From: Verrucomicrobiia bacterium
GTDB lineage: Bacteria; Verrucomicrobiota; Verrucomicrobiia; Limisphaerales; JADLHS01
Direction: 5' to 3'
Assembly (NCBI GenBank): GCA_011525685.1
Contig: WYBW01000049.1
Span: 40,280-104,279, forward strand
DNA length: 64,000 bases
Part shown: positions 143-39,845 of the stretch, piece after piece
How the letters are laid out: each line of letters starts with the position of its first letter
Position numbering within the stretch: the stretch's first letter is position 1
Translations under genes and position numbers: made by a program
The notes under the pieces: generated by a model
What the model saw: only the letters and a program-made list of their open reading frames with translations
Database searches by the model: none
Told to the model about the DNA's origin: nothing

Positions 143-487
143 ATGAACATGATCCAAAACAAACCGAACCTCAGAGCCGTAACCCAGGGAGAGTTCGCGT
201 CGGCAGTCTTGCAGTCGGGCAAACCGGTTCTGGTGGTGTTCTTCGCGACGTGGAGCCGCCCGTGCCAGGTCTTGGAGGCCACGCTGAACGAGGTAGTGAC
301 CGCCTGCGACGGGCAAGCAGCGTTCTTAAAAATCAATGCCGACGATCACCCCGACCTCAGTCTTTGCTACGACATCCAATCCGTTCCGACGTTGCTCTAT
401 TTCGTTGGCGGACATGTGCGGGCCAGAGTCGTCGGCACGGTGTCCAAAGAAGCCATTCTCGCCAAACTGAATTTGCTCAACCCATGA
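143..487 (+). CDS. Thioredoxin-fold protein with a monothiol W-S-R-P-C site in place of W-C-G-P-C
   Basis: The 114-aa protein contains VVFFATWSRPCQVLEATL, aligning to the Trx active-site region, and the cis-Pro motif SVPTLLYF. The first (nucleophilic) Cys is replaced by Ser. Confidence 0.85.
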   Translation: MNMIQNKPNLRAVTQGEFASAVLQSGKPVLVVFFATWSRPCQVLEATLNEVVTACDGQAAFLKINADDHPDLSLCYDIQSVPTLLYFVGGHVRARVVGTVSKEAILAKLNLLNP

Positions 488-618
488 AGATACCAAATCA
501 CTCTTACCACCCAAAGGCGCTGGGCGCGCCGACTTTCGCTACAGCGGTTGCTGCGTCGCGATCCTGCCTGAGTTCCTGCCCGACTCCCCGCGCGCCCAGC
601 GCCTCTTCTTTTGCCGGT

Positions 619-722
619 GGAGCGCGGGCTTTAGCCCGCTTCAACGTCCGTAAGGCGAGAGACAATAGTCTTTCATATCTGCTGGCGTTTTGGGAGTTGA
701 AGCGGCGTGAACGCCGCGCCCC
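619..722. repeat. Palindromic repeat element, family G (GGAGCGCGGGCTTyAGCCCGCTTCAAC arms)
   Basis: The left arm at 619-645 is a roughly 75% reverse complement of the right arm at 696-722. A second copy lies at 28994-29104 and shares the internal GACAAT..CTTTCA core. Confidence 0.6.
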
Positions 723-1818
723 GCTCGCACTCGCGGTGGTCGCCGCGCTTACTGCGGCGCTGGCGTTCACCGGCTGCGAGAAGCCCGAGGCCAAAGCCCC
801 CGAGAAAAGTCTGGTGCGCACCGCGGTCGTCGAGCCGGCGGGCAATGGCCGTTCCGACAGCGAGGCGGCCTATCTCGCGGCGGTGAAGTTCGACCGCGAA
901 ACGGATCTCAATTTCAAGGTCGGCGGGATCGTGGTCCTCATTGGACCGGCCGCCAACGCGGATTGGGACGAGGCGACGCCGGTCAAGATCGGGGCGCTGC
1001 TGGCCGAGTTGAAGCAATCGGATTTTGAGAACGCGTTGAGCGCGGCGCGTGCGAAGGCGGACCTGGCCGACAAGACGCGCGAGCGTTTCCGGAAACTCCG
1101 CGAGACGGACGCCATTTCGCAGCAAGAACTCGATGTCGTCGAGGCCGAGTGGCGCACAGCGCAGGCGGCGCTGGATCAGGCGCAGCACAATCTGCGCGAC
1201 TCGCGATTGGTGGCGGACAAGAACGGCGTGATCCTGAGGCGCTACATCAACCGCGGCGTCACGGTTGCACCCGGCCAGCCGGTGCTGCGCTTCGCCGACA
1301 CGAGTCTGATGTCCGTCGAGTTGGGCCTGCCGGATCGGTTGATTGGCAAGGTGACGCCCGGCCAGGAGATTGATGTCGAGATTTCGGCGTTGGAGGGCCT
1401 GAAGCCTTTCAAGGGCACTGTTACGGAAGTCGGCGTGGCGGCGAGTGCTGAAGGCCGATTGTTCCGCGTCGTAATCAAAGTGCCGAATCCGGAAGGGCAG
1501 TTGCGTTCGGGCATGACCGCGCGCATTCGCGTCGGCGACGCGGCCGCGACGCCGGGCACAGTCACCATTCCGCTCTCGGCGCTGGTGACGCTGGTGTCCG
1601 AAGGCGGCTCGCATGGCAACCCGCAAACGCAACTCGGCGTCTTCGTCGTCCAGGACGGCAAAGTGGTGAAGCGCGCGGTGAAGACCGGCGACATCATCAA
1701 GAGTTCCATTCTCGTGACCGAAGGATTGCGGGCGGGGGAACAGGTCGTCACATCGGGAGCCAGTTTTCTTTACGACGGCGCGCCGGTCGAAGTCGCCCCC
1801 GAACTGACCACCAAGTAA
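697..1818 (+). CDS. RND efflux periplasmic adaptor (membrane fusion protein), predicted lipoprotein
   Basis: It has HlyD/MFP-like coiled-coil and beta-barrel segments (QQELDVVEAEWRTAQAALDQAQ, GQPVLRFADTSLMSVELGLPD). From the TTG at 697 the N-terminus reads KRRERRAPLALAVVAALTAALAFTGC, a signal peptide plus lipobox. The start is uncertain: an in-frame ATG at 484 is possible, and the track ORF start at 250 overlaps the trx gene. Confidence 0.8.
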   Translation: MKRRERRAPLALAVVAALTAALAFTGCEKPEAKAPEKSLVRTAVVEPAGNGRSDSEAAYLAAVKFDRETDLNFKVGGIVVLIGPAANADWDEATPVKIGALLAELKQSDFENALSAARAKADLADKTRERFRKLRETDAISQQELDVVEAEWRTAQAALDQAQHNLRDSRLVADKNGVILRRYINRGVTVAPGQPVLRFADTSLMSVELGLPDRLIGKVTPGQEIDVEISALEGLKPFKGTVTEVGVAASAEGRLFRVVIKVPNPEGQLRSGMTARIRVGDAAATPGTVTIPLSALVTLVSEGGSHGNPQTQLGVFVVQDGKVVKRAVKTGDIIKSSILVTEGLRAGEQVVTSGASFLYDGAPVEVAPELTTK

Positions 1819-1846: not shown

Positions 1847-4800
1847 ATGTCAGACCACGTTGAGAAAAAGACCGAGTCCGGTGTGGATGCGACGCCGAGC
1901 ACTTCAACCGTAGCGCAGACCTCCGAGTCTGCTGTATCGCAGGTTTCAAAACCTGCGGGCGCAACGAAGGGAGAAGCCCCCGAAAAATCTCAGCGCGATG
2001 CCGATTTGGAAATCGGCGATACAGCAGGTTTGGAAACCTGCGCTACGAAAAAGCCCGCAGCTCACGTTGAAAACAAGAAGGAGTCCGGTGGCATCGCTCA
2101 GTTCTTTGTCGAGCATCGGGAGGTGAGCTGGCTGGCGCTGATCGCCGTGCTGGTGTGGGGCGTGGTGGCCTACACCAAGCTGGGCCAGCAGGAAGACCCC
2201 ACGATTCCCCAGCGCACCGCGATGCTGGTGACGATCTTCCCCGGCGCGACCGCCTCGAAGGTCGAGGAACTGGTCGCGAAGCCGCTCGAACGCAAGATCA
2301 GCGAGCTGGATTCCATCGAGGAGATCAAGACGACGGTCCGGCCCGGCGTCGTCACGATGAACATCAAACAGCTTCCCGCGCCGAAGCCGACGATCGACCA
2401 GCAGTGGGACAAGGTCCGGTCCAAGATCGCCGAAGTGCAGTTGCCCGACGGCACGCGGCAGCCGTGGCTCAACACGGATTTTGGCAACACGATCACGCTG
2501 CTATATGCGCTGGTCAGCCCGCCAATCACCGAGGCGGAGTGCGTGGCGCGGGCCAACCTGCTGCGGGACCGCCTGGCCGACCTCCGCGCCGGAGCGCCTT
2601 CCACCCATCGCGCCGCCGTGGCGGCCTGGCTGCCCGGCATGGACGCGAAAGCCCTCGAGACGCTCCGCGGCCGGTTCGAGGTGGCAATCCAGGCGGCCGG
2701 TCTCGCCAAAGCCGTGCGCACTACTCAGGGTCACTCGTTCATCCTGGCCGACCTGGAAACCACCGCCAGCCGCGGCGATCTGGAGAAGTTCATCGCCGAG
2801 TTCACCCGAACGTTCACGGGCACCGATCGTGAACTGTATCATCCCGATTTCACCCAGCCGATCGTGTTGATGGGCGATGAAGACCCGTTGCCGCAAATCC
2901 GCGCCACGGCCCCGCCGCGTTACAGCTATCGCACGCTCGAGTTGCTGGCGCGCGATTTCGAGGACGAACTCAAGCAGGTCGAGAGCGTCGGCAAAGTCAC
3001 CAAGGTCGCCATCGTGGAGGAAGCGGTGTATCTGCTTTACTCGGACGCCGACCTGGCCGGCTACGGCCTGACGCCGGAAGGCGTGATGTTCTCGATCAAC
3101 GCGCGCAACGCGGTGATTCCCGGCGGCACAATGCGCACCGAAGGCCGCAATTTCCCCGTGCAGCTTTCCGGCGAATACAAGACCGAGAACGACATGCTCG
3201 GGACGGTGGTGGGCATGGGACGCGGCGGCGCGCCGGTGTATCTGCGCGATGTCTTCGAAGTCCGCCGGATGTATGAGTCGCCCATTTCCTACAAGGTGGA
3301 TGTGCTCGGACGCGACAATGTAGCGCAGGTTTCCAAACCTGCTGTGTCGCCGACTTCCAAGTCGGCAGCGCGTGGGAAGATCGAGCGGTCAGCGGATTTG
3401 GAAATCCGCGATACAGCAGACTTGGAAGTCCGCGCTACGACGGAAAGCTCGCCGCTCGACACGCGCCGCGCCGTCATGGTCGCCGTCGAGATGCGCGAGG
3501 GAAAGATCATCCGCCATTTCAACGAGGACGTGACGAGGTTGGTGGACCGGATGAAGGCGCGCACCCCCGAGGGCATCGAGTTTCGGGTGTTGTCCGACCA
3601 ACCCTCGGCCGTGGATCATCGCATCAAGCACTTCATGAAGTGCTTCATGGAGGCGGTGATCATCGTGATCGTCGTCGCGCTGTTCATGATGGATTGGCGC
3701 TCGGCGCTGGTGCTGGCCACCGCGATTCCCGTGGGCGTCGCCATGACGTTCGTGGGCATGCAGGTGCTGGGCATTCCCCTGCAACAAATCTCCATCGCCG
3801 CGCTCATCATCGCGCTGGGTCTGCTGGTGGACGTGCCGGTGGTCGCCTCCGATGGCATCAACCGCGAGCTGTATCGGAAGGAGCCGCGGTTGCGCGCGGC
3901 CTGGCTGGGGCCGCTGCGTCTGCGGCATCCCATGGTGTTCGGCACCCTGACCTGCGTCTTCTCGTTCCTGCCGCTGCTGATGCTCTACGGCGACAAGGGC
4001 GAGTTCATGAAGAGCATGCCGACGGTGGTGACCATGGCGCTGCTCTCGGCGTTGCTGGTGTCCAACACCTTCCTGCCGCTCATCAGCTACTACGTGCTGC
4101 GCGGGCAGAAAGGGTTCGATGAAGGCGGCGAGGTGCGTTCGTTCTTCCTGTTCGGGCTGGTGGATCGGGCGCTCCTGGCGCTGTTGCCGATCTACCAAAA
4201 GGCCCTGCGGGGCGCGCTCAAGCGACCGTATCTCGTTCTGGGCGTCGCCTACGCGGTGCTGGCGCTGGTCCTCGTCTTTGTGTTCCCGCGATTGGGCAGC
4301 CAGTTCTTCCCGCCGGCCGAGCGCAATCAACTGCTGGTGGACATCGAAACGCCTTCGAGCGATTCGCTGACCAGCACGCGCGCGGCGATGGATCAAGTGG
4401 TAACCATTATCAAGCAGCACGAGGAAGTGGCCAGCGCGGCGGTGTTCTCCGGCGGCACGGCCCCGCGTTTCTATTACAACGTCGAACCCAAGGCACCGGC
4501 CAATTACCTCGGGCAAATTCTCATCAACACGCGCCACGCGGACGAGGTGGACGGCCTGATCGTCAAACTGCGCAAGGAACTGGACTCTTCCGTGCCCGGA
4601 GTGCGCTGCGTCGTCAAGCCGCTCGAGCAAGGTCCGCCCATCAACGAACCGATCCAAATCCGCCTCAGCGGCGAGAACCTGGACAAGCTGCGCCTCCTCG
4701 CCGATCAGGTTGCGACCGAACTGCGCGCGGCGGGCGGCTATCACGTGCATGACGACCTCGGCCTGCGCATGCCCAGTCTCCAGATTGACATTGATCAGGA

Positions 4801-5707
4801 CCGCGCGAATTCACTCGGCTTGAACAACCGGCAGATTGGCGGCGTGGCCCTCTCCTCCTTTGCCGGTTTGCAGGTGACGGAACTGCGCGAAAAGGACCGG
4901 CTCATCCCCGTGTTGGTGCGCGGTCGCATCGAAGACCGCAGCGAGGTGGAGAAGATTCGCGCGCTCTACGCGCCGACGCCCGACGGGAAGAGCGTTCCCT
5001 TCGAGAGCTTCGCCAAGGTGACCGTGCAGCCCGAGTTCGTCCGGATTCCGCACTACAACCAACTTCGCACCGTCACCGTCAAGGCCTACGCGCCGTTCGG
5101 CGAACTGGCGTCGCAGGTGCTCGACCGCGCGCGCCCGGGCCTGGCGAAGATCAAACTCGAACCGGGTTACGAATTGAAGTTCGCCGGCGAGGACGAGGAA
5201 CTGCGCAAGAGCAAGGCGGAGATGATGGTCATCCTGATGGTCTGCCTGGCGCTGATCGTTGGCACGCTGGTGCTGCAATTCAAGTCGGTCGTCAAGGCGG
5301 CGACAGTCATGCTGACAGCGCCGCTGGTGCTCATCGCCTCGATCATCGGCCTCTTTGTCACCAACTCACCCTTCGGGTTCATGGCCATGCTGGCGGTGAT
5401 CAGCCTGATTGGCGTGCTCGTGTGCAACATGATCGTGCTCAGCGAACAGATCGAGCACTCGCGCGAACAGGGGCTGCCGTTGGAGGAGGCGCTGGTGAAG
5501 TCCGGCCTGTCCCGGTTGCGCCCGGTGCTGATGACGGTCCTGGCCGTGTCCGGCGGCCTGGTGCCGCTGTTCTTTGCCGGCGGCGCGCTGTGGCATCCGC
5601 TGACGGCGGTTCACATCTTCGGCCTGCTCTTCGCCCCGGTGCTGACGTTGGGGATGTTGCCGACGATGTACTATGTCTTCTGCGCCAAACTGAAGTTAAT
5701 CAAGTAA
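1847..5707 (+). CDS. RND efflux permease (AcrB/HAE-type inner-membrane pump), 1286 aa, carrying two in-frame repeat insertions
   Basis: Length, twelve hydrophobic segments in a 1+5 / 1+5 arrangement, and AcrB-like periplasmic domains. AGGAGA lies 8 nt upstream of the ATG. The gene sits between adaptor and outer-membrane factor genes. Confidence 0.95.
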   Translation: MSDHVEKKTESGVDATPSTSTVAQTSESAVSQVSKPAGATKGEAPEKSQRDADLEIGDTAGLETCATKKPAAHVENKKESGGIAQFFVEHREVSWLALIAVLVWGVVAYTKLGQQEDPTIPQRTAMLVTIFPGATASKVEELVAKPLERKISELDSIEEIKTTVRPGVVTMNIKQLPAPKPTIDQQWDKVRSKIAEVQLPDGTRQPWLNTDFGNTITLLYALVSPPITEAECVARANLLRDRLADLRAGAPSTHRAAVAAWLPGMDAKALETLRGRFEVAIQAAGLAKAVRTTQGHSFILADLETTASRGDLEKFIAEFTRTFTGTDRELYHPDFTQPIVLMGDEDPLPQIRATAPPRYSYRTLELLARDFEDELKQVESVGKVTKVAIVEEAVYLLYSDADLAGYGLTPEGVMFSINARNAVIPGGTMRTEGRNFPVQLSGEYKTENDMLGTVVGMGRGGAPVYLRDVFEVRRMYESPISYKVDVLGRDNVAQVSKPAVSPTSKSAARGKIERSADLEIRDTADLEVRATTESSPLDTRRAVMVAVEMREGKIIRHFNEDVTRLVDRMKARTPEGIEFRVLSDQPSAVDHRIKHFMKCFMEAVIIVIVVALFMMDWRSALVLATAIPVGVAMTFVGMQVLGIPLQQISIAALIIALGLLVDVPVVASDGINRELYRKEPRLRAAWLGPLRLRHPMVFGTLTCVFSFLPLLMLYGDKGEFMKSMPTVVTMALLSALLVSNTFLPLISYYVLRGQKGFDEGGEVRSFFLFGLVDRALLALLPIYQKALRGALKRPYLVLGVAYAVLALVLVFVFPRLGSQFFPPAERNQLLVDIETPSSDSLTSTRAAMDQVVTIIKQHEEVASAAVFSGGTAPRFYYNVEPKAPANYLGQILINTRHADEVDGLIVKLRKELDSSVPGVRCVVKPLEQGPPINEPIQIRLSGENLDKLRLLADQVATELRAAGGYHVHDDLGLRMPSLQIDIDQDRANSLGLNNRQIGGVALSSFAGLQVTELREKDRLIPVLVRGRIEDRSEVEKIRALYAPTPDGKSVPFESFAKVTVQPEFVRIPHYNQLRTVTVKAYAPFGELASQVLDRARPGLAKIKLEPGYELKFAGEDEELRKSKAEMMVILMVCLALIVGTLVLQFKSVVKAATVMLTAPLVLIASIIGLFVTNSPFGFMAMLAVISLIGVLVCNMIVLSEQIEHSREQGLPLEEALVKSGLSRLRPVLMTVLAVSGGLVPLFFAGGALWHPLTAVHIFGLLFAPVLTLGMLPTMYYVFCAKLKLIK
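1910..2046. repeat. Palindromic repeat element, family A (GTAGCGCAG...CTGCGCTAC termini, GGTTTGGAAACCTG-type hairpins)
   Basis: Terminal inverted repeats GTAGCGCAG / CTGCGCTAC and internal hairpins (GCCGATTTGGAAATCGGC, CAGGTTTGGAAACCTG). It lies inside the RND ORF and is translated as ..VAQTSESAVSQVSKPAG..ADLEIGDTAGLETCAT.. Confidence 0.7.
3320..3438. repeat. Palindromic repeat element, family A, second copy inside the RND pump gene
   Basis: GTAGCGCAGGTTTCCAAACCTGCTG ... CAGCAGACTTGGAAGTCCGCGCTAC. It is translated in frame as NVAQVSKPAVSPTSKSAARGKIERSADLEIRDTADLEVRAT. Confidence 0.7.
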
Positions 5708-5717
5708 TCATCACATT

Positions 5718-7169
5718 ATGCGCTCATCATTTCTGAAACTGTCGGTTGGTTGCGCCGCGCTGGCGCTGGCCGGGTGCGCCGTTGGCCCGAACTACAAACA
5801 ACCCGCGGTGAACACGCCGGCGGCGTTCCGGGGCGCGGCCAACGTTGATTCCACCAACTCGCTCGCCGACCTGCCGTGGTGGGGACTCTTCAAGGATCCG
5901 GCGCTCCAGGACTTGATCCACGTGGCCCTCACCAACAACTACGACCTGCAGATCACCCTCACGCGGGTGGATCAGGCGCGGGCGATTCAAGCGCAGGCGC
6001 GGTCGCAATTCCTGCCGCAAGTAGGCTACGGAGGTGAAGCCAATCGGGGCAAGAACGAGTATCTCGGCCTTCCCGCACCGAACGGCGGCCGAACCATGGA
6101 CAGCTACCTGGCCGGCCTCGGAGCGGTTTGGGAAATTGATCTTTGGGGCCGCGTGCGCCGGATGAGCGAAGCCGCCAAAGCCAACTTCATGGCCACGCAG
6201 GAAGGCCGGCGGGTGGTCATGACCTCGCTGGTCAGCGGCGTCGCCGCAGCCTACTTTGAGTTGCTGGAACTGGACGAGCAACTCGCCATTGCCCAGCGCA
6301 CGCGGGACTCCTACGAGCGGATGCTGAAACTGTTCTCCGACCAACATGCCGGCGGTCTGGCGTCGAAACTTGAGGTGTCCCGGGCCGAACTCGCGCTGCG
6401 TTCGGTTTCGGCCAACATCCCGGAGATTGAGCGCCAGATCGCGCTCAAAGAAAACGAAATCAACACGCTGCTGGGTCGCAACCCCGGCCCTATTGCCCGC
6501 ACCTCGACGCTGCTGGCGCAGGACTTGCCGGTCGAAATCCCGGTCGGTCTGCCGTCGAGTTTGCTGCAGCGCCGGCCCGACATCCGCGCCGCCGAGCAAC
6601 AAGTCCGGATGGCCAACGCGGAAATCGGCGTCGCCACCGCCGATTTCTTCCCGCGCATCGGTCTCACGACCTTTTACGGCGGCACCAGCACCGATCTCGA
6701 CAATCTGTTCAAGAGCGAGGCGAATGTCTGGTCCGCGGCGGCCAGCGCGGCCGGGCCGATCTTTACCGGCGGCCGGTTGACCGCCCACCGCCGGCAAGCC
6801 AAAGCCGCTTGGGAAGAAGCCAAACTGCATTACCAGCAGACCGCCCTCACCGCCTTCCGCGAGGTTTCCGATGCGCTCATCTCCCGCCGCCGGTTCGAAG
6901 AAAGCCGCAGCGAGCAAACGCAGGCCGTTGACGCCGGCCGTCAGGCTGTGGAACTGGCGACGACGCGCTTCAAAGAGGGCAAGGCGAGTTATTACGAGGT
7001 GCTCGAAGCGCAACAGCAACTCTACCCCGCCGAGAACACTCTCTCGCGCCTCGAAGTCGCCCGCCGCCTCGCCGTCATTCAACTCTACAAATCCCTCGGC
7101 GGCGGGTGGGAAACCGAGGCATCCGTGAACCCAGCCGCGCGGTCAGACGCGTCGTCTCAATCCAGGTAA
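5718..7169 (+). CDS. RND efflux outer-membrane factor lipoprotein (NodT/OprM family)
   Basis: Signal peptide with lipobox LALAGCAVGPNYKQP, typical of NodT. Two OEP-like repeats. It lies directly downstream of the pump gene. Confidence 0.9.
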   Translation: MRSSFLKLSVGCAALALAGCAVGPNYKQPAVNTPAAFRGAANVDSTNSLADLPWWGLFKDPALQDLIHVALTNNYDLQITLTRVDQARAIQAQARSQFLPQVGYGGEANRGKNEYLGLPAPNGGRTMDSYLAGLGAVWEIDLWGRVRRMSEAAKANFMATQEGRRVVMTSLVSGVAAAYFELLELDEQLAIAQRTRDSYERMLKLFSDQHAGGLASKLEVSRAELALRSVSANIPEIERQIALKENEINTLLGRNPGPIARTSTLLAQDLPVEIPVGLPSSLLQRRPDIRAAEQQVRMANAEIGVATADFFPRIGLTTFYGGTSTDLDNLFKSEANVWSAAASAAGPIFTGGRLTAHRRQAKAAWEEAKLHYQQTALTAFREVSDALISRRRFEESRSEQTQAVDAGRQAVELATTRFKEGKASYYEVLEAQQQLYPAENTLSRLEVARRLAVIQLYKSLGGGWETEASVNPAARSDASSQSR

Positions 7170-12365: not shown

Positions 12366-13759
12366 TCTTGAAGCGTATTCCTTCAGTTCTAATCACTCTG
12401 CTGCTCGTCAGCGGTTGCGCCCACTATCCGCGCAACGCCCGGTTGACCAGGAGCGAGCCTGCCGCCGGCTATCGGTTTCGTCCCACCACCTCGCCCACCA
12501 ATTCCTCCGACCTGCTCCTGATGCTGGCTTTCTCCGGCGGCGGCACCCGCGCCGCCGCTTTGGCTTACGGAGTGTTGGAGGAACTGGCGCGCACGCCTTT
12601 GGGCGCGGAGGCAACCCAACACCGGATGCTCGATGAGGTGGACATCATCTCCTCCGTGTCCGGCGGCAGTTTCACCGCCGCGTACTACGCCCGGTGGGGC
12701 GACCGCATTTTCTTGGACTTCGAATCTGAGTTTCTCAAGAAGAACGTCCAGAACGCTCTGCTGCTCCGCGTTCTGTCGCCTTGGAATCAAGTCCGGCTGG
12801 CTTCGCCCAAATTCAATCGGACCGACCTGGCGGCGGAGTATTATGATCGCCGGCTGTTCCAAGGGGCGACGTATGCAGAGTTGCCGGGCGACCGTCCCTT
12901 TCTCTGTATCAATGCCACGGACACCGCCTCCGGCGCACGGTTCGAGTTCACCCAGGACCAATTCGATCTGCTGCAGTCGGACTTGGGACCATTCCCAATC
13001 GCGCGGGCGGTGGCCGCCTCCTCGGCGTTTCCCGTGCTCCTGACGCCGGTGGTTTTGAAGAACTATTCTGCTGAACATCCCCGACCTGAACCGGAGTGGA
13101 TCACCTCCATCCTGGACAGCCCAACCGCCTCCACTCGCCTCAAATATCTGGCGGCCCAGGCCCGCTCTTACGGAGACGCGGACCGACGGTTCATCCATCT
13201 GCTCGATGGCGGAATCTCCGACAATCTCGGCTTGCGGGGTGCCCTGGATCGGGTGATCGCCCGCGAACAGTTTGCCGAAATTCCCAGTGTGCCGTGGCAG
13301 CTTCCCCGCCGCGTGGCGATTGTCGTCGTCAACGCGCACAAGGACTCCGATTACGGCTGGGACTCCCAAGAAAGCCCGTTGAGCCGGGTCAAGTTGTTCA
13401 GCTCGCTCAGCCACGTGGCGGTGAGTCATTATTCCTTCGAGACCCTCGAATTGTTCCGCGAAGTCATGGCACGCCTGGGGCAGGAGTACACCGGCACGGG
13501 CGATTCCGCGCCGGCCGCAGTCGTCCCCTATGTCATCGAACTGCACTTCAATCAATTGGCCGATGCGTCCGACCGCCGCTTCTTCAATTCCGTGCCCACG
13601 ACGTTCGCGCTCCCGTCCAAGACGGTGGATCGCCTGCGTCAATTAGCCGCTCGCGAACTCGCCGATAACGCGGAATTCCGACGATTGGTCAGCGACCTCG
13701 GGGGCCAGCCAGATGCAACGAATTTACCTGCCCGCCTTTCCCCACCCACCACGGAATAA
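12362..13759 (+). CDS. Patatin-like phospholipase, predicted lipoprotein
   Basis: From the GTG at 12362 the N-terminus reads ILKRIPSVLITLLLVSGC (lipobox). Oxyanion motif FSGGGTRAAA, nucleophile elbow VSGGS, and Asp motif LLDGGISDNLG. A GTGA overlap links it to the TRASH gene. Confidence 0.85.
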   Translation: MILKRIPSVLITLLLVSGCAHYPRNARLTRSEPAAGYRFRPTTSPTNSSDLLLMLAFSGGGTRAAALAYGVLEELARTPLGAEATQHRMLDEVDIISSVSGGSFTAAYYARWGDRIFLDFESEFLKKNVQNALLLRVLSPWNQVRLASPKFNRTDLAAEYYDRRLFQGATYAELPGDRPFLCINATDTASGARFEFTQDQFDLLQSDLGPFPIARAVAASSAFPVLLTPVVLKNYSAEHPRPEPEWITSILDSPTASTRLKYLAAQARSYGDADRRFIHLLDGGISDNLGLRGALDRVIAREQFAEIPSVPWQLPRRVAIVVVNAHKDSDYGWDSQESPLSRVKLFSSLSHVAVSHYSFETLELFREVMARLGQEYTGTGDSAPAAVVPYVIELHFNQLADASDRRFFNSVPTTFALPSKTVDRLRQLAARELADNAEFRRLVSDLGGQPDATNLPARLSPPTTE

Positions 13760-13767
13760 ATCCATTT

Positions 13768-16254
13768 ATGAACCCCACCAAGATGAAGCCCAAACCGATA
13801 AAGAAAGAAGCCCTCCTCGCCCGCTACAACTGCGGGCCGGTGAAATTATCCGGCGACGGCAATGCCTTTTACGAGCGGCATCTGACCTTCGATCAAGTGC
13901 TGCGCGACACGGAAGCCACGGCGCGCGACAAGTATGAAGCCATCGCCCGTTCCGTGCGCGACGTGCTGTCGCAACGCTGGCTGAAGACCGAGCAAACCTA
14001 CCAGCAACGCAACGCCAAGCGAGTCTATTATCTCTCGATGGAGTTTCTGCTGGGGCGCTCGCTGGCGAACAACATCACCAACCTCCAGATTGATCCCGAA
14101 GTCGAACACTTCGCAAAACATCACCAACTCGATCCGCTCCAGATCATCGAACAGGAACCGGACGCCGGGCTGGGCAACGGCGGCCTCGGCCGGCTCGCCG
14201 CGTGTTTCCTCGATTCCATGGCCACGCTGAACATTCCCGGCATGGGTTACGGCTTGCGCTACGACTACGGCATCTTCCGGCAAAGCCTGCGCAATGGCTG
14301 GCAGGCCGAGCAACCCGACCACTGGCTCGCCCGGCCCGATCCGTGGGAAGTCGCCCGGCCCAACGAAGCCGTCGAGGTAAAGCTCAACGTGTCGTTCGAG
14401 ATTCGCGGCGGCGCGTTGCGGGTCGTCGAAGGCCGCCCGTCGTCGCTCATCGGCGTTCCGTATGACCGGCCCGTGGTCGGCTACGGCGGCAAGACCATCA
14501 ACACGCTGCGCCTCTGGGCCGTGAAGGCGGCGAATGACTTCGACTTCGCCCAGTTCAGCAGCGGCGATTTCGTCGGCGCGCTGGCCGAAACGCTCACCGC
14601 CGAAACTATCACGCGCGTGCTCTACCCGGACGATTCGACCGCCGAAGGCAAAGGGCTCCGCTTCCTGCAGGAATACTTCCTCGTCGCCTGCTCGCTCGCG
14701 GACCTTGTCCGCCGTTTTCGCGCCGCCGGCAACGATTGGTCCGCGCTGCCCGACAAGGTCGCCCTCCAGCTCAACGACACGCACCCGACGATGGCCGTGC
14801 CGGAATTGATGCGGCTGCTCCTGGACGAGGCGAAACTCAACTGGGACGACGCCTGGCAACTCACCCAACGCACGCTGGCCTATACGAATCACACGCTGCT
14901 GCCCGAAGCACTGGAGAAATGGCCGGTGCAATGGTTTCAAGAATTGTTGCCGCGCCAGCTTGCGATCATTTACGAAATCAACCACCGTTTTCTCAACGAC
15001 GTTCGCGCGAAGTTTCCCGGCGACGAAGCCCGCATTGCGCGGGTCAGCCTGATCGAGGAAGGCGCGCACCGGCAGGTGCGCATGGCGCACCTGGCTATCG
15101 TCGGCTCGCACAGCACCAACGGCGTGGCCGCGTTGCACTCGGAACTGCTCAAACAACGCGTCGTGCCGGATTTCGCAGCCGTGTTCCCCGAACGTTTCAA
15201 CAACAAGACCAACGGCGTCACCCCCCGCCGCTGGCTGCTGCTGGCCAATCCGCCGCTGGCCTCCGTCATCACCGAGGCCATCGGCGACGGCTGGATCACT
15301 GACCTGGCGCAGTTGGAGAAACTGAAGCCGCTCGCCAACGACAGCGCGTTCATCGCGGCGGTAGGCCAGGCGCAACGCGATACGAAGGCCCGGTTCGTCC
15401 AGTGGCTCGGCCGGCCCGGGATTGATCCCGAAAGTATTTTCGACACGCAAATCAAACGCATCCACGAATACAAACGGCAACTGCTGAACGCGCTCCACAT
15501 TGTCGTGCTTTACCATCGGCTGCGCGAGAATCCGAAGCTCGCCGTTCCGCCGCGCACGTTCTTCTTCGCCGGCAAAGCCGCGCCCGCCTACCACTTCGCC
15601 AAGCTGGTCATCAAGTTCATCAACAACGTCGCGGCCACGCTTGACAGTGATCCCGCCACCAAGGGCCGGCTCAAGGTTGTTTTCGTGCCGGACTACCGCG
15701 TGTCCGTGGCGGAATGCCTGATTCCCGCCAGCGACGTGTCCGAGCAAATCTCGACCGCCGGCTACGAAGCCAGTGGCACGAGCAACATGAAGTTCATGAT
15801 GAACGGCGCGCTCACCATCGGCACGCGCGACGGCGCCACCATCGAAATGGCCGAAGCCGCCGGCGAGGAAAACGTCTTTCTGTTCGGCCTGAATGCGGAA
15901 CAGGTCGAGGCCAGTCGCGGCTGGTATGATCCGCGTTGGCACTACGAGAACGAGCCGGAAACGCGCGCCGCGCTCGACTTGATTGCCAACAATCATTTCA
16001 GCCAAAACGAATCCGGCATCTTCTCGCCCATCCTCGATGCGCTGCTCCGGGATGGCGACCACTACCGGCATCTGGCCGATTTCACCAGTTACGCCCAGGC
16101 CCAGCAACGGATCGGGGAACTGTATGCCGACCCACCGGCCTGGACCCGCAAGGTGATCCTGAACATTGCCGCCTCCGGCCGGTTCTCCAGCGACCGCACG
16201 ATTTCTCAGTATGCCAAAGAGATTTGGAACGCTGAACCTTGTCCGATCGAATAA
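13768..16254 (+). CDS. glgP: Glycogen/maltodextrin phosphorylase
   Basis: 828 aa with hallmark GT35 segments (EPDAGLGNGGLGRLAACFLDS, TNHTLLPEALE, the PLP-site region EISTAGYEASGTSNMKFMMNG). Confidence 0.95.
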   Translation: MNPTKMKPKPIKKEALLARYNCGPVKLSGDGNAFYERHLTFDQVLRDTEATARDKYEAIARSVRDVLSQRWLKTEQTYQQRNAKRVYYLSMEFLLGRSLANNITNLQIDPEVEHFAKHHQLDPLQIIEQEPDAGLGNGGLGRLAACFLDSMATLNIPGMGYGLRYDYGIFRQSLRNGWQAEQPDHWLARPDPWEVARPNEAVEVKLNVSFEIRGGALRVVEGRPSSLIGVPYDRPVVGYGGKTINTLRLWAVKAANDFDFAQFSSGDFVGALAETLTAETITRVLYPDDSTAEGKGLRFLQEYFLVACSLADLVRRFRAAGNDWSALPDKVALQLNDTHPTMAVPELMRLLLDEAKLNWDDAWQLTQRTLAYTNHTLLPEALEKWPVQWFQELLPRQLAIIYEINHRFLNDVRAKFPGDEARIARVSLIEEGAHRQVRMAHLAIVGSHSTNGVAALHSELLKQRVVPDFAAVFPERFNNKTNGVTPRRWLLLANPPLASVITEAIGDGWITDLAQLEKLKPLANDSAFIAAVGQAQRDTKARFVQWLGRPGIDPESIFDTQIKRIHEYKRQLLNALHIVVLYHRLRENPKLAVPPRTFFFAGKAAPAYHFAKLVIKFINNVAATLDSDPATKGRLKVVFVPDYRVSVAECLIPASDVSEQISTAGYEASGTSNMKFMMNGALTIGTRDGATIEMAEAAGEENVFLFGLNAEQVEASRGWYDPRWHYENEPETRAALDLIANNHFSQNESGIFSPILDALLRDGDHYRHLADFTSYAQAQQRIGELYADPPAWTRKVILNIAASGRFSSDRTISQYAKEIWNAEPCPIE

Positions 16255-16270
16255 GAAAGCCAGCACCACC

Positions 16271-18415
16271 ATGTTCGCTGAAGGCCAGCCAGTGCCAGTG
16301 GGAGCAACGTGGACTGGGGACGGGTGGAACTTCGCCTTGTATTCCCGGCACGCGACCGGTGTGACGTTGCTGTTGTACGACGAGAAGAATTTCGTAAAGC
16401 CCGTGGCCGTGCTCAAGCTCGAGCCGCTGCAGAACAGAACCGGACGCATCTGGCATTGCTTCGTTTCGCAATCCACCGCGCCGGGCGCGCGATACTACGC
16501 TTACCGGGTCGAAGGCCCAGCCGGGGTGTTGCACCGGTTCGATGCCCAGAAGGTGTTGCTCGATCCCTTTGCCGAGCAGGTGTTCTTTCCGCCGGATTTT
16601 TCGCGTGCCGCCGCGATGCAGCCGGGCGCGAACGATGGACGTGCGCCGCTCGGTGTGTTGCCCATGAACCCGGAGTCCGAAACGCGAATTCCCGAAACCC
16701 GAAAGAAGCCCGAAATCCGAGCACCGAACCCAACTTCATCTGGCGGTTTGGAAACCTGTTCCCCGGACAGTACTCATAACCCGCCAGTTCGGCATTCGGG
16801 GTACGGATTTCTTTCGGATTTCGGTCCTCGAACTTCGGATTTCAGGTGGAAGCCGGCGGCCACCGGTGAGTTCACCCGGCTACGCCGTCCCTGGCACGAG
16901 ATCGTCGTCTATGAACTGCACGTCAAAGGCTTCACGGCCCGCGCGAACTCCGGCGTGACTCCCGAAAAACGCGGAACGTTCCTGGGCTTGATCGAAAAGA
17001 TTCCGTATCTCAAAGAACTCGGCGTGACGGTCGTCGAGTTGTTGCCGGTGCATCAGTTCGATCCGCAGGAGGGCAATTACTGGGGCTACATGACATTGAG
17101 CTTCTTTGCGCCGCATCAAGGTTACGCAGTGCAGGATGCGGCGGCGGATTTTCGCGAGATGGTGGAGGCGTTTCACGCGGCCGGGATCGAGGTGTGGCTC
17201 GACGTGGTTTACAACCACACGTGCGAAGCCGACCGGGCCGGGCCGACTTATTCGTGGCGCGGGATTGACAACAGCACTTACTACCTGCTCGAACCCGACG
17301 GGCGATACCGCAACGACAGCGGCTGCGGGAACGTGCTGCGTTGCGGGCGCGAGGCCGCGCGCCTGCTGGTCCTGGAGAGCCTGCGGCATTGGGCTGATAT
17401 CGGCGTTGACGGGTTTCGTTTTGACCTGGCCTCCGCTTTGGCGCGCGATGCGCACGGCCAGGTGCTGACGGACGAGGCTCCGATGATCAGCGAGATTACG
17501 GCGCTGGCCATGGCGGGAAAATTCCGGGCCGTGGCCGAGGCGTGGGACATCGGGACGAGTCTGTTGGGCCGGAGTTATCCGGGCTGGCTGTGGGGACAGT
17601 GGAACGGCCAATACCGCGACGACGTGCGCGCCTTTGTTCGCGGCGATCCCGGCAAGGTCGGCGCGCTGATGCGGCGGTTGTACGGCAGTGATGATCTCTT
17701 TCCTGAAGGCCCAGGCGATGTTTACCGGCCGTATCAGAGCGTCAACTTCATCACCGCGCACGACGGCTTTTGTCTCTACGATCTGGTCGCCTACAACCAC
17801 AAGCACAACGAAGCCAACGGCCATAACAACACCGACGGCTGCGACAATAACCTGAGCTGGAACTGCGGTTGGGAAGGCGACGCGGGCGCGCCGGCGGAGG
17901 TGATCACGTTGCGCCGGCAACAAGTGAAGAACTTTTTCTGCCTGCTGATGCTGTCGAACGGCACGCCGATGTTCTGCGCGGGCGACGAGTTTCTGAACAC
18001 GCAAGGCGGCAACAATAACCCGTACAATCAAGACAACGAAACCACGTGGCTGGACTGGTCGTTGCTCGAAAAGAACCGCGACATCTTTCAGTTTTTCCAG
18101 CGGATGATCGCGTTCCGCAAAGCGCACCCGGCCATTGCCAGCGGCCGGTATTGGCGCGAGGCGGTGCGGTGGTACGGAGCAACCGGCCCGGTGGATTTTG
18201 ATTCGCGCTGTCTGGCGTATTGTTTGCACGGCGCGAGCGACCTCTACGTCATGATCAACGCCTTCTGGGAGCCGGTGCGATTCCAAATTCAGCAGCCCGG
18301 CGCTTGGAACTGTTTCGTGGACACCAGCAGCCAGGATTTGGAAACGCGGGCCGTAGCTGGTTTGAATTATGAGGTTGCACCACGATCCGTCGTGGTGCTG
18401 GAGCGCGCAGCATGA
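16271..18415 (+). CDS. glgX: Glycogen debranching enzyme (GlgX/isoamylase-type GH13) with an in-frame repeat insertion
   Basis: N-terminal CBM48-like GATWTGDGWNFALYS. GH13 motifs DVVYNHT, GFRFDLA, EAWD and FITAHDGF. Confidence 0.9.
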   Translation: MFAEGQPVPVGATWTGDGWNFALYSRHATGVTLLLYDEKNFVKPVAVLKLEPLQNRTGRIWHCFVSQSTAPGARYYAYRVEGPAGVLHRFDAQKVLLDPFAEQVFFPPDFSRAAAMQPGANDGRAPLGVLPMNPESETRIPETRKKPEIRAPNPTSSGGLETCSPDSTHNPPVRHSGYGFLSDFGPRTSDFRWKPAATGEFTRLRRPWHEIVVYELHVKGFTARANSGVTPEKRGTFLGLIEKIPYLKELGVTVVELLPVHQFDPQEGNYWGYMTLSFFAPHQGYAVQDAAADFREMVEAFHAAGIEVWLDVVYNHTCEADRAGPTYSWRGIDNSTYYLLEPDGRYRNDSGCGNVLRCGREAARLLVLESLRHWADIGVDGFRFDLASALARDAHGQVLTDEAPMISEITALAMAGKFRAVAEAWDIGTSLLGRSYPGWLWGQWNGQYRDDVRAFVRGDPGKVGALMRRLYGSDDLFPEGPGDVYRPYQSVNFITAHDGFCLYDLVAYNHKHNEANGHNNTDGCDNNLSWNCGWEGDAGAPAEVITLRRQQVKNFFCLLMLSNGTPMFCAGDEFLNTQGGNNNPYNQDNETTWLDWSLLEKNRDIFQFFQRMIAFRKAHPAIASGRYWREAVRWYGATGPVDFDSRCLAYCLHGASDLYVMINAFWEPVRFQIQQPGAWNCFVDTSSQDLETRAVAGLNYEVAPRSVVVLERAA
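16686..16846. repeat. Palindromic repeat element, family C (CCGAAATCCG / CGGATTTCGG arms)
   Basis: CCCGAAACCCGAAAGAAGCCCGAAATCCGAGCACCGAAC versus GTTCGGCATTCGGGGTACGGATTTCTTTCGGATTTCGG. It is translated inside glgX as ETRKKPEIRAPNP..GYGFLSDFGPRTSDFR. Boundaries are approximate. Confidence 0.65.
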
Positions 18416-23716: not shown

Positions 23717-26428
23717 GTGTCCGCCACGTTATACGATCTCATTCCGCGCGAGGAGAAAACCGGCAATGATGTGCTGCTGGGGCGGTTTCTCGATTACGTG
23801 GAGGGAAGGCGGCTGCAACTTTATCCCGCCCAGGAATCCGCCATCCTGGAATTGTTCGAGGACAAGAACGTCATCCTGAACACGCCCACCGGCTCGGGCA
23901 AATCGCTCGTAGCCACGGCGCTGCATTTCGCAGCCATCGCCAGGGGCCGGCGCTCCATCTACACCTGTCCGATCAAGGCGCTGGTAAACGAGAAGTTCAT
24001 GGCGCTGTGCCGCGAGTTCGGCCCGGACAACGTCGGCCTCAGTACGGGCGATGCGTCGGTGAACCGCGACGCGCCCATCCTTTGCTGCACGGCGGAGATT
24101 CTCGCGAACATCGCCTTGCGCGAAGGCGCGGCGGCCAATGTGCAGGACGTGGTCATGGATGAATTTCATTACTACGCCGATCGGGAACGTGGCGTGGCTT
24201 GGCAGGTGCCGTTGCTGACGTTGCCGCAAACGCGCTTCCTGCTCATGTCCGCGACGCTGGGCGACACGACATTCTTCGAGGAGGAACTGACACGACTCAA
24301 CGGTCGGCCCACCTCTGCGGTGGCGTCCACGGATAGACCGGTGCCGTTGGAACATGCCTACTCGGAACTGCCGCTGGCCAAAACGCTGGAGAGTCTCGTC
24401 GCCGACGGCAAAGCCCCGGTGTATGTCGTCCACTTCACACAATTGGAAGCCGCGCAAAGCGCGCAGGATTTCACGAGCATCAATGTTTGTTCGCGGGAGG
24501 AGAAAGCCGCCATCGCCAACGCGCTCGAAGGTTTCAAGTTCAGCAGCCCCTACGGGCCGGACATCAAGAAGTGGCTGCGGCACGGCATCGGCCTGCATCA
24601 CGCCGGGCTGCTGCCGAAGTATCGCGTGTTGATCGAGCAACTCGCGCAGAAGGGTTTGCTGAAAGTTGTATGCGGCACGGACACGCTGGGCGTGGGCATC
24701 AACGTGCCGATTCGCACCGTGCTGTTCACACGGTTGTGCAAATTCGACGGGCAGAAGACCGTCATTCTGAGCGCGCGCGATTTTCATCAGATCAGCGGGC
24801 GGGCCGGGCGCAAGGGTTTTGATGATCGCGGCTGGGTCGTGGCCCAGGCGCCGGAGCACGTGATCGAGAACTTGAAGCTGGCGGAGAAAGCGGCGCGCGA
24901 TGGCAAGAAAACCGTGAAGCGCCAGCCGCCGGAAAAGAATTTCGTCAACTGGGACAAGAACACGTTTCTGCGGTTGATCGCCGCGCCGCCCGAACGGCTC
25001 ACGTCGCGTTTCCAAGTCACGCACGGAATGTTGCTGAATGTGTTAAGCCGAAATGGCGATGGTTGCCGGGCGATGCAGCAACTCATCGCGCGTTGTCACG
25101 AGACGCCGCGCCAGAAGCAGGCGCACCTCAAACGCGCGTGGCAGTTGTTCCGCTCGTTGCTGGACCGGAGGATTGTGGAGTTCATAGCCCGCCCTCACCC
25201 TGACCCTCTCCCCCAGGAGAGGGAACAGCCAGGTGCGGCTTCTGATGCTTCGTTGACTGACGTTTCAAATCCCGCGTCCGGTATTACCCAAACGCGGCAA
25301 GCGATTCTCCCTCTCCCCGGGGGAGAGGGCCGGGGTGAGGGCGAGCGCAAGTCACTGGATGGCGGCCGGAAACTTCGCGTGAACGTCGAGCTGCAGGAGG
25401 ATTTCTCCATGGACCAGGCGTTGTCGTTGTATCTGCTCGACACGATTCCACTCGTGGACCCGCAGCAACCCGATTACGCGCTGGTGCTGCTCACGCTCGT
25501 CGAGTCCATTATCGAGGACCCGGACATCATTCTGCGCAAACAACTGGACCGCGTGAAGGACCAGAAAATGGCCGAGATGAAAATGGAGGGCCTTGATTAC
25601 GACCAGCGCATGGAGGAATTGGAGAAGCTCGAATATCCAAAGCCGAACCGGGAGTTCATCTATTCCACGTTCAACGCGTTTGCGGATCGCCATCCGTGGG
25701 TCGGCCAGGAAAACATCCGCCCGAAATCCATCGCGCGGGAGATGTTTGAATCGTTCCGCTCATTTGGCGATTACATCCGCGACTACGAACTGCAACGCGC
25801 GGAGGGCGTTTTGCTCCGGCACTTGAACCGCGTTTACAAAGTGCTCACACAAAATGTTCCGGACGCCGCCAAGAACGATCAAGTGCGCGAGATGGAGCTT
25901 TATCTGGGCGCGATGATCCGGCAGGTGGATTCCAGCTTGCTCGATGAATGGGAGAAAATGCGCGACCCGAATTATCAACGGGCGGAAACAAAGGAGGTGC
26001 GTCCACCCGGCGCGGACGAAGCCGCGCAAGATGTCACGCGCGACACGAAGGCGTTTACGGCGGCGATTCGGAATCGCATCTTTGTTTTCCTGCGCGGGCT
26101 GGTTATCGGTGATTACGAGGCGGCAATTGCAAATCTCAATTCCGCGGCGGATGCCGACGCGCAGCCGTGGACGCCGGATCGTTTGCGCGCCGCGATGCAA
26201 GCTTACGAAGCCGAGCACGATCATCTGTGTCTCGACCCCAACGCGCGGAATGTGCGTCACACCTATGTCGTGCCCGCGGAGGACAAGAAGACCTGGCGCG
26301 TTCAACAAATGCTCGTGGACCCGGAAGGCGACAACGACTGGGTGGCGGAGTTCGAAGTGGACCTGGCGCAATCACGCACCCAAGGCGAACCGTTCCTGCA
26401 ACTGCGGCGCATCGGCAGTCTGGTGTGA
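23717..26428 (+). CDS. Large superfamily-2 DEAH/Ski2-like helicase with a long C-terminal domain, carrying an in-frame repeat insertion
   Basis: Motif [13 protein letters not shown], motif II DEFH, motif III SAT and motif [15 protein letters not shown] start. Confidence 0.85.
25190..25343. repeat. Palindromic repeat element, family D (CGCCCTCACCC..CCCTCTCCCCCAGGAGAGGG / CCCTCTCCCCGGGGGAGAGGG..GGGTGAGGGCG)
   Basis: 34-bp terminal inverted repeats, each itself a hairpin. It is translated inside the helicase as [15 protein letters not shown]...[14 protein letters not shown]. Confidence 0.7.
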
Positions 26429-28993: not shown

Positions 28994-29104
28994 CATGGAG
29001 CGCGGGCTTCAGCCCGCTTCAACTTCGCAAATGGAAGGACACGGAACGATGACAATCTCACCTTTCACTCGCGCGGCGAAGCGGCATGAACGCCGCGCTC
29101 CATG
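28994..29104. repeat. Palindromic repeat element, family G, second copy
   Basis: CATGGAGCGCGGGCTTCAGCCCGCTTCAAC ... GAAGCGGCATGAACGCCGCGCTCCATG. It fills the gap between the L7Ae-like and DEAD-box genes. Confidence 0.65.
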
Positions 29105-39711: not shown

Positions 39712-39845
39712 GTAGCGCAGGATTCCATCCTGCTGGATCGCGGGTTTCCAACCGGCGAACCGTTGCCAGCGGCGGCGTTTGCGTGCGTTGGGTCGGTCTG
39801 CCGAGTGGAATTCGGCGATACGGCAGGTTGGGATGACTGCGCTAC
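39712..39845. repeat. Palindromic repeat element, family A, intergenic copy
   Basis: GTAGCGCAGGATTCCATCCTGCTG ... GCCGAGTGGAATTCGGCGATACGGCAGGTTGGGATGACTGCGCTAC. Confidence 0.65.

Follow-up and report, generated by a model that had tools for sequence, protein, structure and literature searches.

We report that a gene for a resistance-nodulation-division (RND) efflux pump in a 64,000-nt stretch of a Verrucomicrobiia genome (GenBank assembly GCA_011525685.1, contig WYBW01000049.1, positions 40,280–104,279; hereafter the window) contains an in-frame insertion of a dispersed palindromic repeat, which we call E2. E2 occupies positions 3320–3438 on the plus strand, is a near-perfect palindrome of 119 nt, and is read as residues 492–531 of the 1,286-aa product. 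Comparisons with orthologs and with other genomes establish that E2 is an insertion, that it belongs to a family (family A) of paired repetitive extragenic palindromic (REP) units of the REPIN type, that it keeps the reading frame, and that it has persisted under continued purifying selection on the host gene. We consider it likely that E2 is a REP doublet that was mobilized by a REP-associated tyrosine transposase (RAYT), landed in a permissive hairpin loop, and has since been carried as a translated and tolerated segment.

The pump open reading frame (ORF; 1847–5707, plus strand), the translation of which includes ..SPISYKVDVLGRDNVAQVSKPAVSPTSKSAARGKIERSADLEIRDTADLEVRATTESSPLDTRRAVMVAVEMREG.., matches the Pfam model ACR_tran over its full length (E = 3e-151), and its closest solved relatives in the PDB are TriC (6vej, E = 2.6e-125) and MexK (E = 1.7e-121). 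Genes for a membrane-fusion protein and an outer-membrane factor adjoin it, an arrangement that together with the full-length ACR_tran match identifies a tripartite RND system of the HAE1 type. E2 consists of two 47-nt arms that are reverse complements of each other, GTAGCGCAGGTTTCCAAACCTGCTGTGTCGCCGACTTCCAAGTCGGC and GCGGATTTGGAAATCCGCGATACAGCAGACTTGGAAGTCCGCGCTAC, and that are separated by a 25-nt spacer (3367–3391). The left arm (3320–3366, plus strand) has a GTAG head and two stem-loops, and the right arm (3392–3438, minus strand) is the same REP unit in inverted orientation; the layout of an arm is GTAGCGC, hairpin, GCTGTRTCGC, hairpin, GC, and its two short stem-loops have a TTCCAA/TTGGAA centre. 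A profile built from 154 arms from other genomes matches both arms with an E value of approximately 1e-16 (nhmmer scores of 56.2 bits for the left and 54.6 bits for the right arm), the 18-mer at the hairpin core occurs eight times in the window compared with 0.07 expected from shuffles, and as single-stranded DNA the element folds with −37.3 kcal/mol (z = −5.8), which none of 200 shuffled sequences equalled. In the frame of the pump it reads ..VDVLGRD-NVAQVSKPAVSPTSKSAARGKIERSADLEIRDTADLEVRAT-TESSPLDTRRAVMVAVEMREG... A first-pass annotation of this DNA, made from its letters, had described a palindrome at this place in the frame of an RND pump and flanked by conserved pump segments, and both its sequence and its translation hold up.

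Whether the segment is foreign to the pump was decided by alignment with orthologs, which the first-pass annotation had proposed for defining the boundaries of the insert. A search of a protein collection returned 393 homologs at an E value of 1e-50 or less, the best 120 of which are 72–92% identical to the pump. Their modal length is 1175/1176 aa, and the length of the present protein decomposes into 1176 residues plus 69 for a first family-A copy with its flanks (E1, described later) plus 41 for E2. Among the 119 near-full-length orthologs covered by our loop counts, 91 have a loop of only five or six residues between the segments VDVLGR and LDTRR (e.g., TGENGS, TGKDGS, and TSENGP). Conservation in distant orthologs, which would mark the segment as a native loop, is thus not seen and a native loop is refuted. 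At the DNA level, comparison with loci L001, L006, and L206 shows that the block missing from empty-site orthologs extends from 3314 to 3439 on the plus strand and consists of GACAAT, E2, and a G, that is, 126 nt or 42 codons, flanked by the Arg489 codon and by the remnant loop codons ACG GAA AGC TCG CCG. Identity to the nearest orthologs with an empty site is only about 84%, and the loop changes rapidly, which blurs the exact junction of E2 and any duplication at it. Among the orthologs a family-A insert is common only to P0001 (92% identical) and P0020 (86% identical, partial). Since these inserts have the same length as E2 and a homologous spacer, the three copies go back to one ancestral event; the spacer of the orthologous copy in locus L002 is identical at 17 of 25 positions.

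The arms of E2 recur widely. When we scanned one genome per species with a degenerate arm pattern, at least 118 stretches were found to contain family A, nearly all of them in metagenome-assembled genomes (MAGs) of Verrucomicrobiota (Limisphaerales, "subdivision 3", Verrucomicrobiia); the counts given for the family here and below are among the matches listed. Several MAGs contribute six to nine loci each, and three copies can be counted in the 64 kb of the present genome. There are 110 paired copies compared with 26 single arms. Total doublet lengths range from 115 to 219 nt according to the spacer, and strictly matching doublets fall into classes of 115–120, 134–137, and 155–156 nt that differ in the spacer alone. 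The GTAGCGC head, the invariance of which in 154 arms was required by the search pattern, is followed directly by the hairpins, and the stems of these covary across the family. In 113 unique arms, columns 11/18 of hairpin 1 are C-G in 60 and T-A in 53 with no mismatches, columns 10/19 hold 65 G-C pairs and 43 A-T pairs, and columns 32/45 at the base of hairpin 2 show three pair types, namely C-G (52), G-C (36), and A-T (16). We found no target-site duplication, in that flank identity in 77 copies equals the shuffled expectation for k = 1–8 (with the exception of E1, which has a duplication of 33 nt), and no extended palindromes beyond chance in the flanks of family-A copies. No Rfam family reached its gathering score over the whole window; the element is therefore not a known structured RNA.

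The lengths of family-A copies are spread over all residues modulo 3 (29:28:20). Frame 1 is free of stops in 66 of 93 copies and frame 3 in 63, whereas frame 2, which always begins with TAG, is open in none; frame 1 is the one used by E1 as well as by E2. How often the family is embedded in proteins was judged from the ORF context of the 110 paired genomic copies. Most lie outside genes or in 5′ leaders and approximately four lie in the middle of a long ORF, and the only two convincing intragenic copies besides E2 and its L002 ortholog are in a beta-propeller repeat protein (L115) and a pyridoxal phosphate-dependent decarboxylase (L041). When 5.8 billion proteins were searched with the E2 peptide (42 residues), the matches were confined to 14 short hypothetical ORFs, 45–74 aa in length, and even the carriers P0001 and P0020 were missed, such that this search is no guide to how often real proteins contain the element. 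Some records rich in family A have unexpected titles, namely Bifidobacterium or Bifidobacteriaceae (L010, L029, L041, L057, and L083), Akkermansia muciniphila (L011, L013, L036, and others), and Sulfotelmatobacter (L012, L030, and others). These titles are probably wrong, through mis-binning or automatic naming, and are not evidence of horizontal spread.

A tblastn search with an approximate E. coli RAYT sequence as the query gave one weak match (E = 0.04) that served as a lead only, an ORF in L043 that starts 45 nt downstream of a family-A copy. Checks that did not depend on this lead showed in the ORF an HUH-like motif, MPNHVHAIV, as well as a truncated match to Y1_Tnp. With its 195 available residues as a query, we collected 80 related metagenomic loci, and family-A arms lie beside the transposase gene in all 80. 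Typically, a full doublet is located approximately 50–100 nt upstream of the gene and another just downstream, and tandem arrays of up to four doublets occur; in L161, L164/L167/L168, and L200, three or four tandem doublets with a period of about 140–175 nt precede the gene. A full-length example (L131:2501–3223, 240 aa) scores 87.6 bits against the NCBIfam equivalog NF047646, "REP-associated tyrosine transposase" (cut-off 80), matches Pfam Y1_Tnp with E = 1.8e-07, and has E. coli TnpA-REP (4er8, E = 2.2e-07) as its top PDB match; it carries an N-terminal extension of about 100 residues that is missing in E. coli TnpA-REP (165 aa). Given this REPtron arrangement in 80 of 80 loci, family A is a REPIN-type family of GTAG-headed REP doublets with a cognate RAYT. 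The earlier description of the palindrome as a mobile repeat is consistent with this result, and judged by the sequence of these loci family A appears mobile in the accepted sense, that is, as a dispersed REP doublet that flanks RAYT genes.

In the history that we favour, E2 is a nonautonomous element of the REP/REPIN class, composed of two inverted GTAG-headed REP units with two stem-loops each and a variable spacer, that would be mobilized in trans by an HUH/Y1 RAYT encoded elsewhere in the genome. Presumably in a shared ancestor of the present genome and those encoding P0001 and P0020, one copy would have inserted into the pump gene where it encodes a beta-hairpin tip of the periplasmic porter domain (the PN2 equivalent). 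This copy would have survived because the length of the block, 126 nt, is divisible by three and because it is read in one of the two stop-free frames of the element; in general, selection filters copies, since the frame-compatible ones are a subset of a family whose lengths cover all residues modulo 3. E2 would be transcribed and translated together with the pump as a hydrophilic, probably disordered segment of about 40 residues, which the pump would tolerate rather than need.

The comparison of the window with L002 bears on what has happened to the insert since. Outside the insert the two pump genes differ by a synonymous distance (dS) of 0.32 and a nonsynonymous distance (dN) of 0.037, and because the resulting dN/dS is 0.12 the pump has been under purifying selection in both lineages since the insertion. 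Within the insert, which has acquired no indels, dN is 0.16–0.18 compared with a maximum of 0.144 in other stretches of 47 codons, and dN/dS is 0.29–0.37 versus 0.12 in the rest of the gene; at the protein level the insert has evolved four to five times faster than the remainder. Constraint on it is thus relaxed, but not demonstrably zero. The two copies have also fared differently as repeats. The arms of E2 in the window score 56 and 55 bits (family median 53), whereas those of the orthologous L002 copy (2544–2662 of that locus) score 26 and 34 bits, and most of the head and palindrome of its left arm has been lost.

When an empty ortholog is aligned to solved pumps, the insertion site falls in the gap between two beta strands at approximately residue 279/280 of MexK (..prmrfmge----------daiglavamkpg..), a site that we take to be equivalent to the PN2 porter subdomain in the AcrB fold; relative to MexK and TriC, this loop has 10 additional residues even in empty orthologs. 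The first-pass annotation had placed the inserted peptide in the porter or docking region, and the alignment to MexK and TriC supports the porter, in a PN2-equivalent beta hairpin, and not the docking domain. It had also called for a structure prediction, and an AlphaFold2 model of residues 83–1282 with 73 orthologs as input shows the insert (model residues 410–449) as coil with pLDDT below 50 between strands at 401–406 and 456–459. The model as a whole is poor (mean pLDDT 54.5, pTM 0.36) and unfit for comparing folds, and we used only its local secondary structure and its confidence for the insert. In composition, the inserted residues are hydrophilic and low in complexity. The most economical reading is a flexible loop on the periplasmic side, at the tip of a beta hairpin in the porter region, that the pump tolerates; on this reading the insert would be disordered and neutral for pump function.

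The same loop is filled in 28 of the 119 orthologs, and the inserts are mutually unrelated. At least five dispersed repeat families are represented, namely family A (VAQVSKPAVS.., in two orthologs counting the partial P0020), "GVHAAS" (..ERGVHAAS..KRPEGRAPE, in long and short forms, 15 orthologs), "TRAPS" (GARLSPAAAG..DTRAPS, two orthologs), "SRREE" (SSRREEAP..SSPRLLR, one ortholog), and "PKSE" (SPKSEVRSPKSE, three or four orthologs), and several further orthologs have various other peptides. Because their arms match dispersed copies in unrelated loci, these inserts are repeat families too. The heads are GGAGCGC-GGCGTTCACGCC-GC in GVHAAS, GGAGCGC-GGCTGTCCCCAGCC-GC in TRAPS, and GTAGCAGCCGAGGTGA in SRREE, and PKSE has AAGTCCG heptamers; four of the five families therefore look like REPs, in that a G(T/G)AGC head adjoins a hairpin. 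A full GVHAAS copy is present elsewhere in the window at 28996–29101 (CATG-GAGCGCGGGCTTCAGCCCGCTTC ... GAAGCGGCATGAACGCCGCGCTC-CATG), and a single arm lies at 698–724. Two palindromic repeats of other families are located at 16692–16824 and 25187–25346, one of the CCGAAATCCGA type (the "PKSEIR" peptide family) and the other G+C-rich with CCCTCACCCTGACCCTCTCCCC arms; the window contains at least four distinct palindromic repeat families.

On a neighbour-joining tree of the proteins, filled and empty orthologs are interleaved, and parsimony counts at least 11 changes between empty and filled and at least 17 changes of insert type. Proteins that are 95% identical can carry different families (P0038 versus P0094, P0091 versus P0104). 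The query itself is sister to P0002 and P0003, which carry the long form of GVHAAS, and all nine members of its subclade are filled, by four different families. Short GVHAAS alleles from clades that are 80% identical in DNA have the same junctions and are 87–89% identical over the insert. Insertions of eight or more residues were found nowhere else in the 1,176 residues of the 120 orthologs, with the exception of positions 3–11 in the N-terminal tail (five sequences). In P0065, P0070, and P0073 the loop reads TSQNGS-TLRSTA-TENGP, which looks like a tandem duplication of the native loop without a repeat element between the two copies; a lost insert may have left it behind as its footprint.

We weighed three alternatives to the history proposed above. 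There is next to no probability that E2 arose from faulty assembly or is a loop native to this lineage of pumps, with its likeness to the repeats due to chance. The intact reading frame is all that speaks for it, against the empty sites in orthologs, the match of E ~1e-16 to arms from other genomes, and the presence of the insert in independent assemblies from other samples, which itself rules out an artefact. An intein or other self-removing insert was also rejected, as the Pfam domains of the pump are ACR_tran and SecD_SecF_C only and the insert comprises 40 low-complexity, repeat-encoded residues. Several observations do weigh against our account. No RAYT gene is present within the 64-kb window; we infer translation of the insert solely from the intact 1,286-codon frame with its conserved start and ribosome-binding site; and a disordered surface loop is weakly suggested, mainly by alignment and composition, the structural model being poor. 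A dN/dS of about 0.3 is below 1 and leaves room for some constraint on the peptide or on the hairpins in DNA or RNA, and the asymmetry between the arms in the window and in L002 is not predicted by pure neutrality. Gene conversion from other copies, selection on hairpins, and a difference between the lineages in RAYT activity are possible causes of this asymmetry, which hints at homogenization or hairpin-level selection in one lineage only. These last points are also what favours co-option of the insert, either as a useful periplasmic surface on the pump or, in the mRNA, as REP hairpins that regulate stability or translation: the window copy has kept consensus hairpins although its gene is at a dS of about 0.3 from L002, and REPs downstream of genes reportedly exert effects through RNA (PMC3733652). 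Most orthologs, however, do without any insert, unrelated sequences replace one another at the site, the gene remains intact in L002 although the left-arm palindrome is gone, and the low-complexity peptide is simply the product of the open frame of the element. We regard co-option as improbable.

A further difficulty for our account is that a single loop has seen at least 11 independent gains or losses, a number not readily accounted for by passive tolerance alone. The first-pass annotation had named preferential landing in permissive loops and strong purifying selection for frame-preserving insertions as alternatives; copies are indeed filtered by selection, and the recurrence at one loop gives targeting some scope. 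The third alternative, which would supplement and not replace the REP-doublet origin of E2, is that the loop is a preferred landing or exchange site for G(T/G)AGC-headed elements, which would be directed to it or swapped by transposases or by allelic recombination. The entry of at least five dispersed families into the same five or six codons, the 28 filled loops among 119 with their many changes of state and type, and the near absence of comparable insertions outside the N-terminal tail all point in this direction, as do the different families in the 95%-identical P0038 and P0094, the shared junctions of the short GVHAAS alleles, and the G(T/G)AGC head beside a hairpin in four families; a subclade in which all nine members are filled by four families fits replacement better than independent insertion. 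On the other hand, a single-strand hairpin at empty sites, which we considered as a target for insertion, is unsupported (z = −2.2, +1.3, and −0.1), no shared motif was identified at the empty sites, and junction positions vary by family. Loop length is already variable here among RND pumps, which makes a uniquely permissive site plausible, the sole other location, the N-terminal tail, is a classic permissive place, and on a protein neighbour-joining tree recombination between lineages could inflate the number of events. We hold this alternative to be possible but doubtful. Its strictest form, in which the loop (aa 420–426 of the pump without an insert) serves as a genuine landing pad or site of exchange where related REP-type families are inserted, precisely excised, and replaced, seems to us somewhat less probable still. 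If it applies, the pumps would have a periplasmic loop that is hypervariable, its content being replaced more quickly than the gene itself diverges, with HUH transposases or allelic recombination between populations as the agents.

E1, the other family-A copy in the pump gene, lies at 1910–2046 on the plus strand (137 nt) and is read in frame as residues 22–67 in the cytoplasmic N-terminal tail. It was found in this genome only and in none of the 120 orthologs. Besides the 137-nt doublet, the 207-nt insertion (1884–2090) contains unique flanks of 26 and 11 nt as well as a direct duplication, 33 nt long, of 5′ codons of the pump (plus strand), the copies of which, at 1851–1883 and 2058–2090, were recovered by a repeat search (82% identity, 27 of 33 positions) and by alignment with seven orthologous loci. 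The first-pass annotation had counted E2 as the second of two independent copies in one gene. The first copy proves to be real and the independence of the two is borne out, E1 being unique with a duplication of its own and E2 being common to two orthologs. Its description of the transporter as essential-looking is unsupported, because RND efflux pumps are usually dispensable, and the argument does not need it. Given that family-A copies are generally without target duplication and E1 has one of 33 nt, E1 is unlike a standard transposition and looks like a repeat-containing fragment captured at a staggered break, or slippage. Weaker duplications of the loop flank the inserts in L005 (VGEASP..ETNAP) and L208 (SENNG..SSVENAP). 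As both elements are palindromic, E1 and E2 form inverted as well as direct repeats with each other (1994–2046 versus 3320–3372, 53 nt, 92% complementary, 1.27 kb apart; 2000–2048 versus 3392–3440, 49 nt, 86% identical), through which, in principle, the first 470 pump codons could be inverted or deleted. The third family-A copy in the window (39712–39845, with no strand assigned) is diverged, with arms scoring 30.7 and 32.4 bits by nhmmer, and is intergenic between two minus-strand genes.

Upstream of the pump in the same operon, the ORF for the membrane-fusion protein (250–1818, plus strand; Pfam HlyD_D23) has 522 aa in contrast to 372–384 aa in orthologs, and alignment with seven orthologs places the approximately 140 additional residues at the N terminus. 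This extension includes the single GVHAAS arm at 698–724 (GAAGCGGCGTGAACGCCGCGCCCCG), which is read as ..ELKRRERRAPL.. right before the lipoprotein signal. At its 5′ end the listed ORF probably reaches too far, and the true start would be much further downstream. Downstream of the pump, and likewise of this operon, is the gene for the outer-membrane factor (5718–7169, plus strand; Pfam OEP, E = 8.9e-57). In the orthologous operon of L003, the outer-membrane factor (13644–15287) has 547 aa instead of approximately 482. MRSLFYK and the lipoprotein signal are separated there by about 65 residues (..LINTGLQPGD..KPLKRLG..TGLKPGANG..), which look like another repeat family, either in frame or included through an over-called start. 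Within the pump, residues 225–371 (2519–2959) correspond to about 145 extra residues that are present in all 120 orthologs and absent in TriC and MexK, where they fall between TriC residues 152 and 168. This segment is the best-predicted part of the AlphaFold model (pLDDT of about 80–87, with alternating helices and strands) and looks to be an extra periplasmic subdomain that is native to this RND clade of Verrucomicrobiota.

REPs and REPINs with RAYT transposases are known from earlier work (Nunvar 2010; Bertels and Rainey 2011, PMC3116915; Di Nocera et al. 2013, PMC3733652). Family A resembles GTAG REPs and REPINs in its GTAG head next to a stem-loop, its inverted doublets with a variable spacer, the lack of target duplication, its hundreds of dispersed and mostly extragenic copies, and the repeats that flank an NF047646-type transposase gene as in a REPtron. 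In several phyla, ORFs have been shown to contain REPs tagged with GTAG or CGTC (Di Nocera et al. 2013, PMC3733652), and intragenic in-frame GTAG REPs are most numerous in the verrucomicrobium Opitutus terrae, where some ORFs hold two; a GTAG-17 dimer is recorded there at residues 511–526 of the "acriflavin resistance" RND protein Oter_1122 (PMC3733652, supplementary table). Family A is a different sequence family from GTAG-17 to GTAG-20 of O. terrae. Its peptides are VAQVSKPAVS and ADLEIGDTAGLETCAT as opposed to VGPALAAG, GTGVPPV, and GRDARAT, it has two stem-loops per arm and a conserved TTCCAA centre, its doublets of 115–156 nt encode about 40 and not 20–30 residues, and its RAYT of 240 aa has the N-terminal extension of about 100 residues relative to E. 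coli TnpA-REP. In-frame REP and Rickettsia palindromic element (RPE) insertions, one of them in an RND pump of O. terrae, are thus already published, and E2 is another instance. What is new is the extent of the multifamily hot spot, whose parallel in the same study is one line on Xanthomonas recB, in which different REPs occupy roughly one position (PMC3733652).

Family A also shares some behaviour with RPEs. Both are palindromes of 100–150 nt that occur in frame in functional genes, where RPEs are translated and E2 probably is, and both also occur in N-terminal regions; E2 is an in-frame insertion in an otherwise conserved, functional ORF, as expected of an RPE. In-frame palindromic repeats in functional genes were reportedly first described in Rickettsia by Ogata and colleagues in 2000, and Claverie and Ogata are said to have treated them again in 2003. 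RPEs are taken to occupy loops at the protein surface that are remote from active sites, and RPE-4 and RPE-6 belong to the CGTC-tagged class. RPEs are AT-rich whereas family A is GC-rich with a GTAG head, the host phyla are unrelated, and we know of no established cognate transposase of RPEs and of no sequence relationship between them and family A. The likeness would therefore seem to be an analogy of behaviour only and not one of membership. Bacterial MITEs (short for miniature inverted-repeat transposable elements; e.g., Correia/NEMIS, ERIC, and Nezha) derive from DDE insertion sequences and have target-site duplications. Like family A, they are short and nonautonomous, have terminal inverted repeats, and occasionally lie within or fused to ORFs; the absence of target-site duplication in family A and the HUH type of its transposase rule out a MITE.

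E2 itself mainly aids annotation, in that 40 extra residues, together with the 69-residue N-terminal extension, are repeat-derived and not features of the pump, and many short "hypothetical proteins" in these organisms (VAQVSKPAVS.., ..WKPAL.., and ..GNLRY) are the family-A element in three frames. The association of family A with a RAYT gene in 80 of 80 loci provides a biochemically testable REP-RAYT system in uncultured soil and freshwater Verrucomicrobiota. The series of pump orthologs constitutes a natural experiment on REP targeting, on the precision of excision, and on the amount of foreign sequence that the porter domain of an RND pump tolerates.

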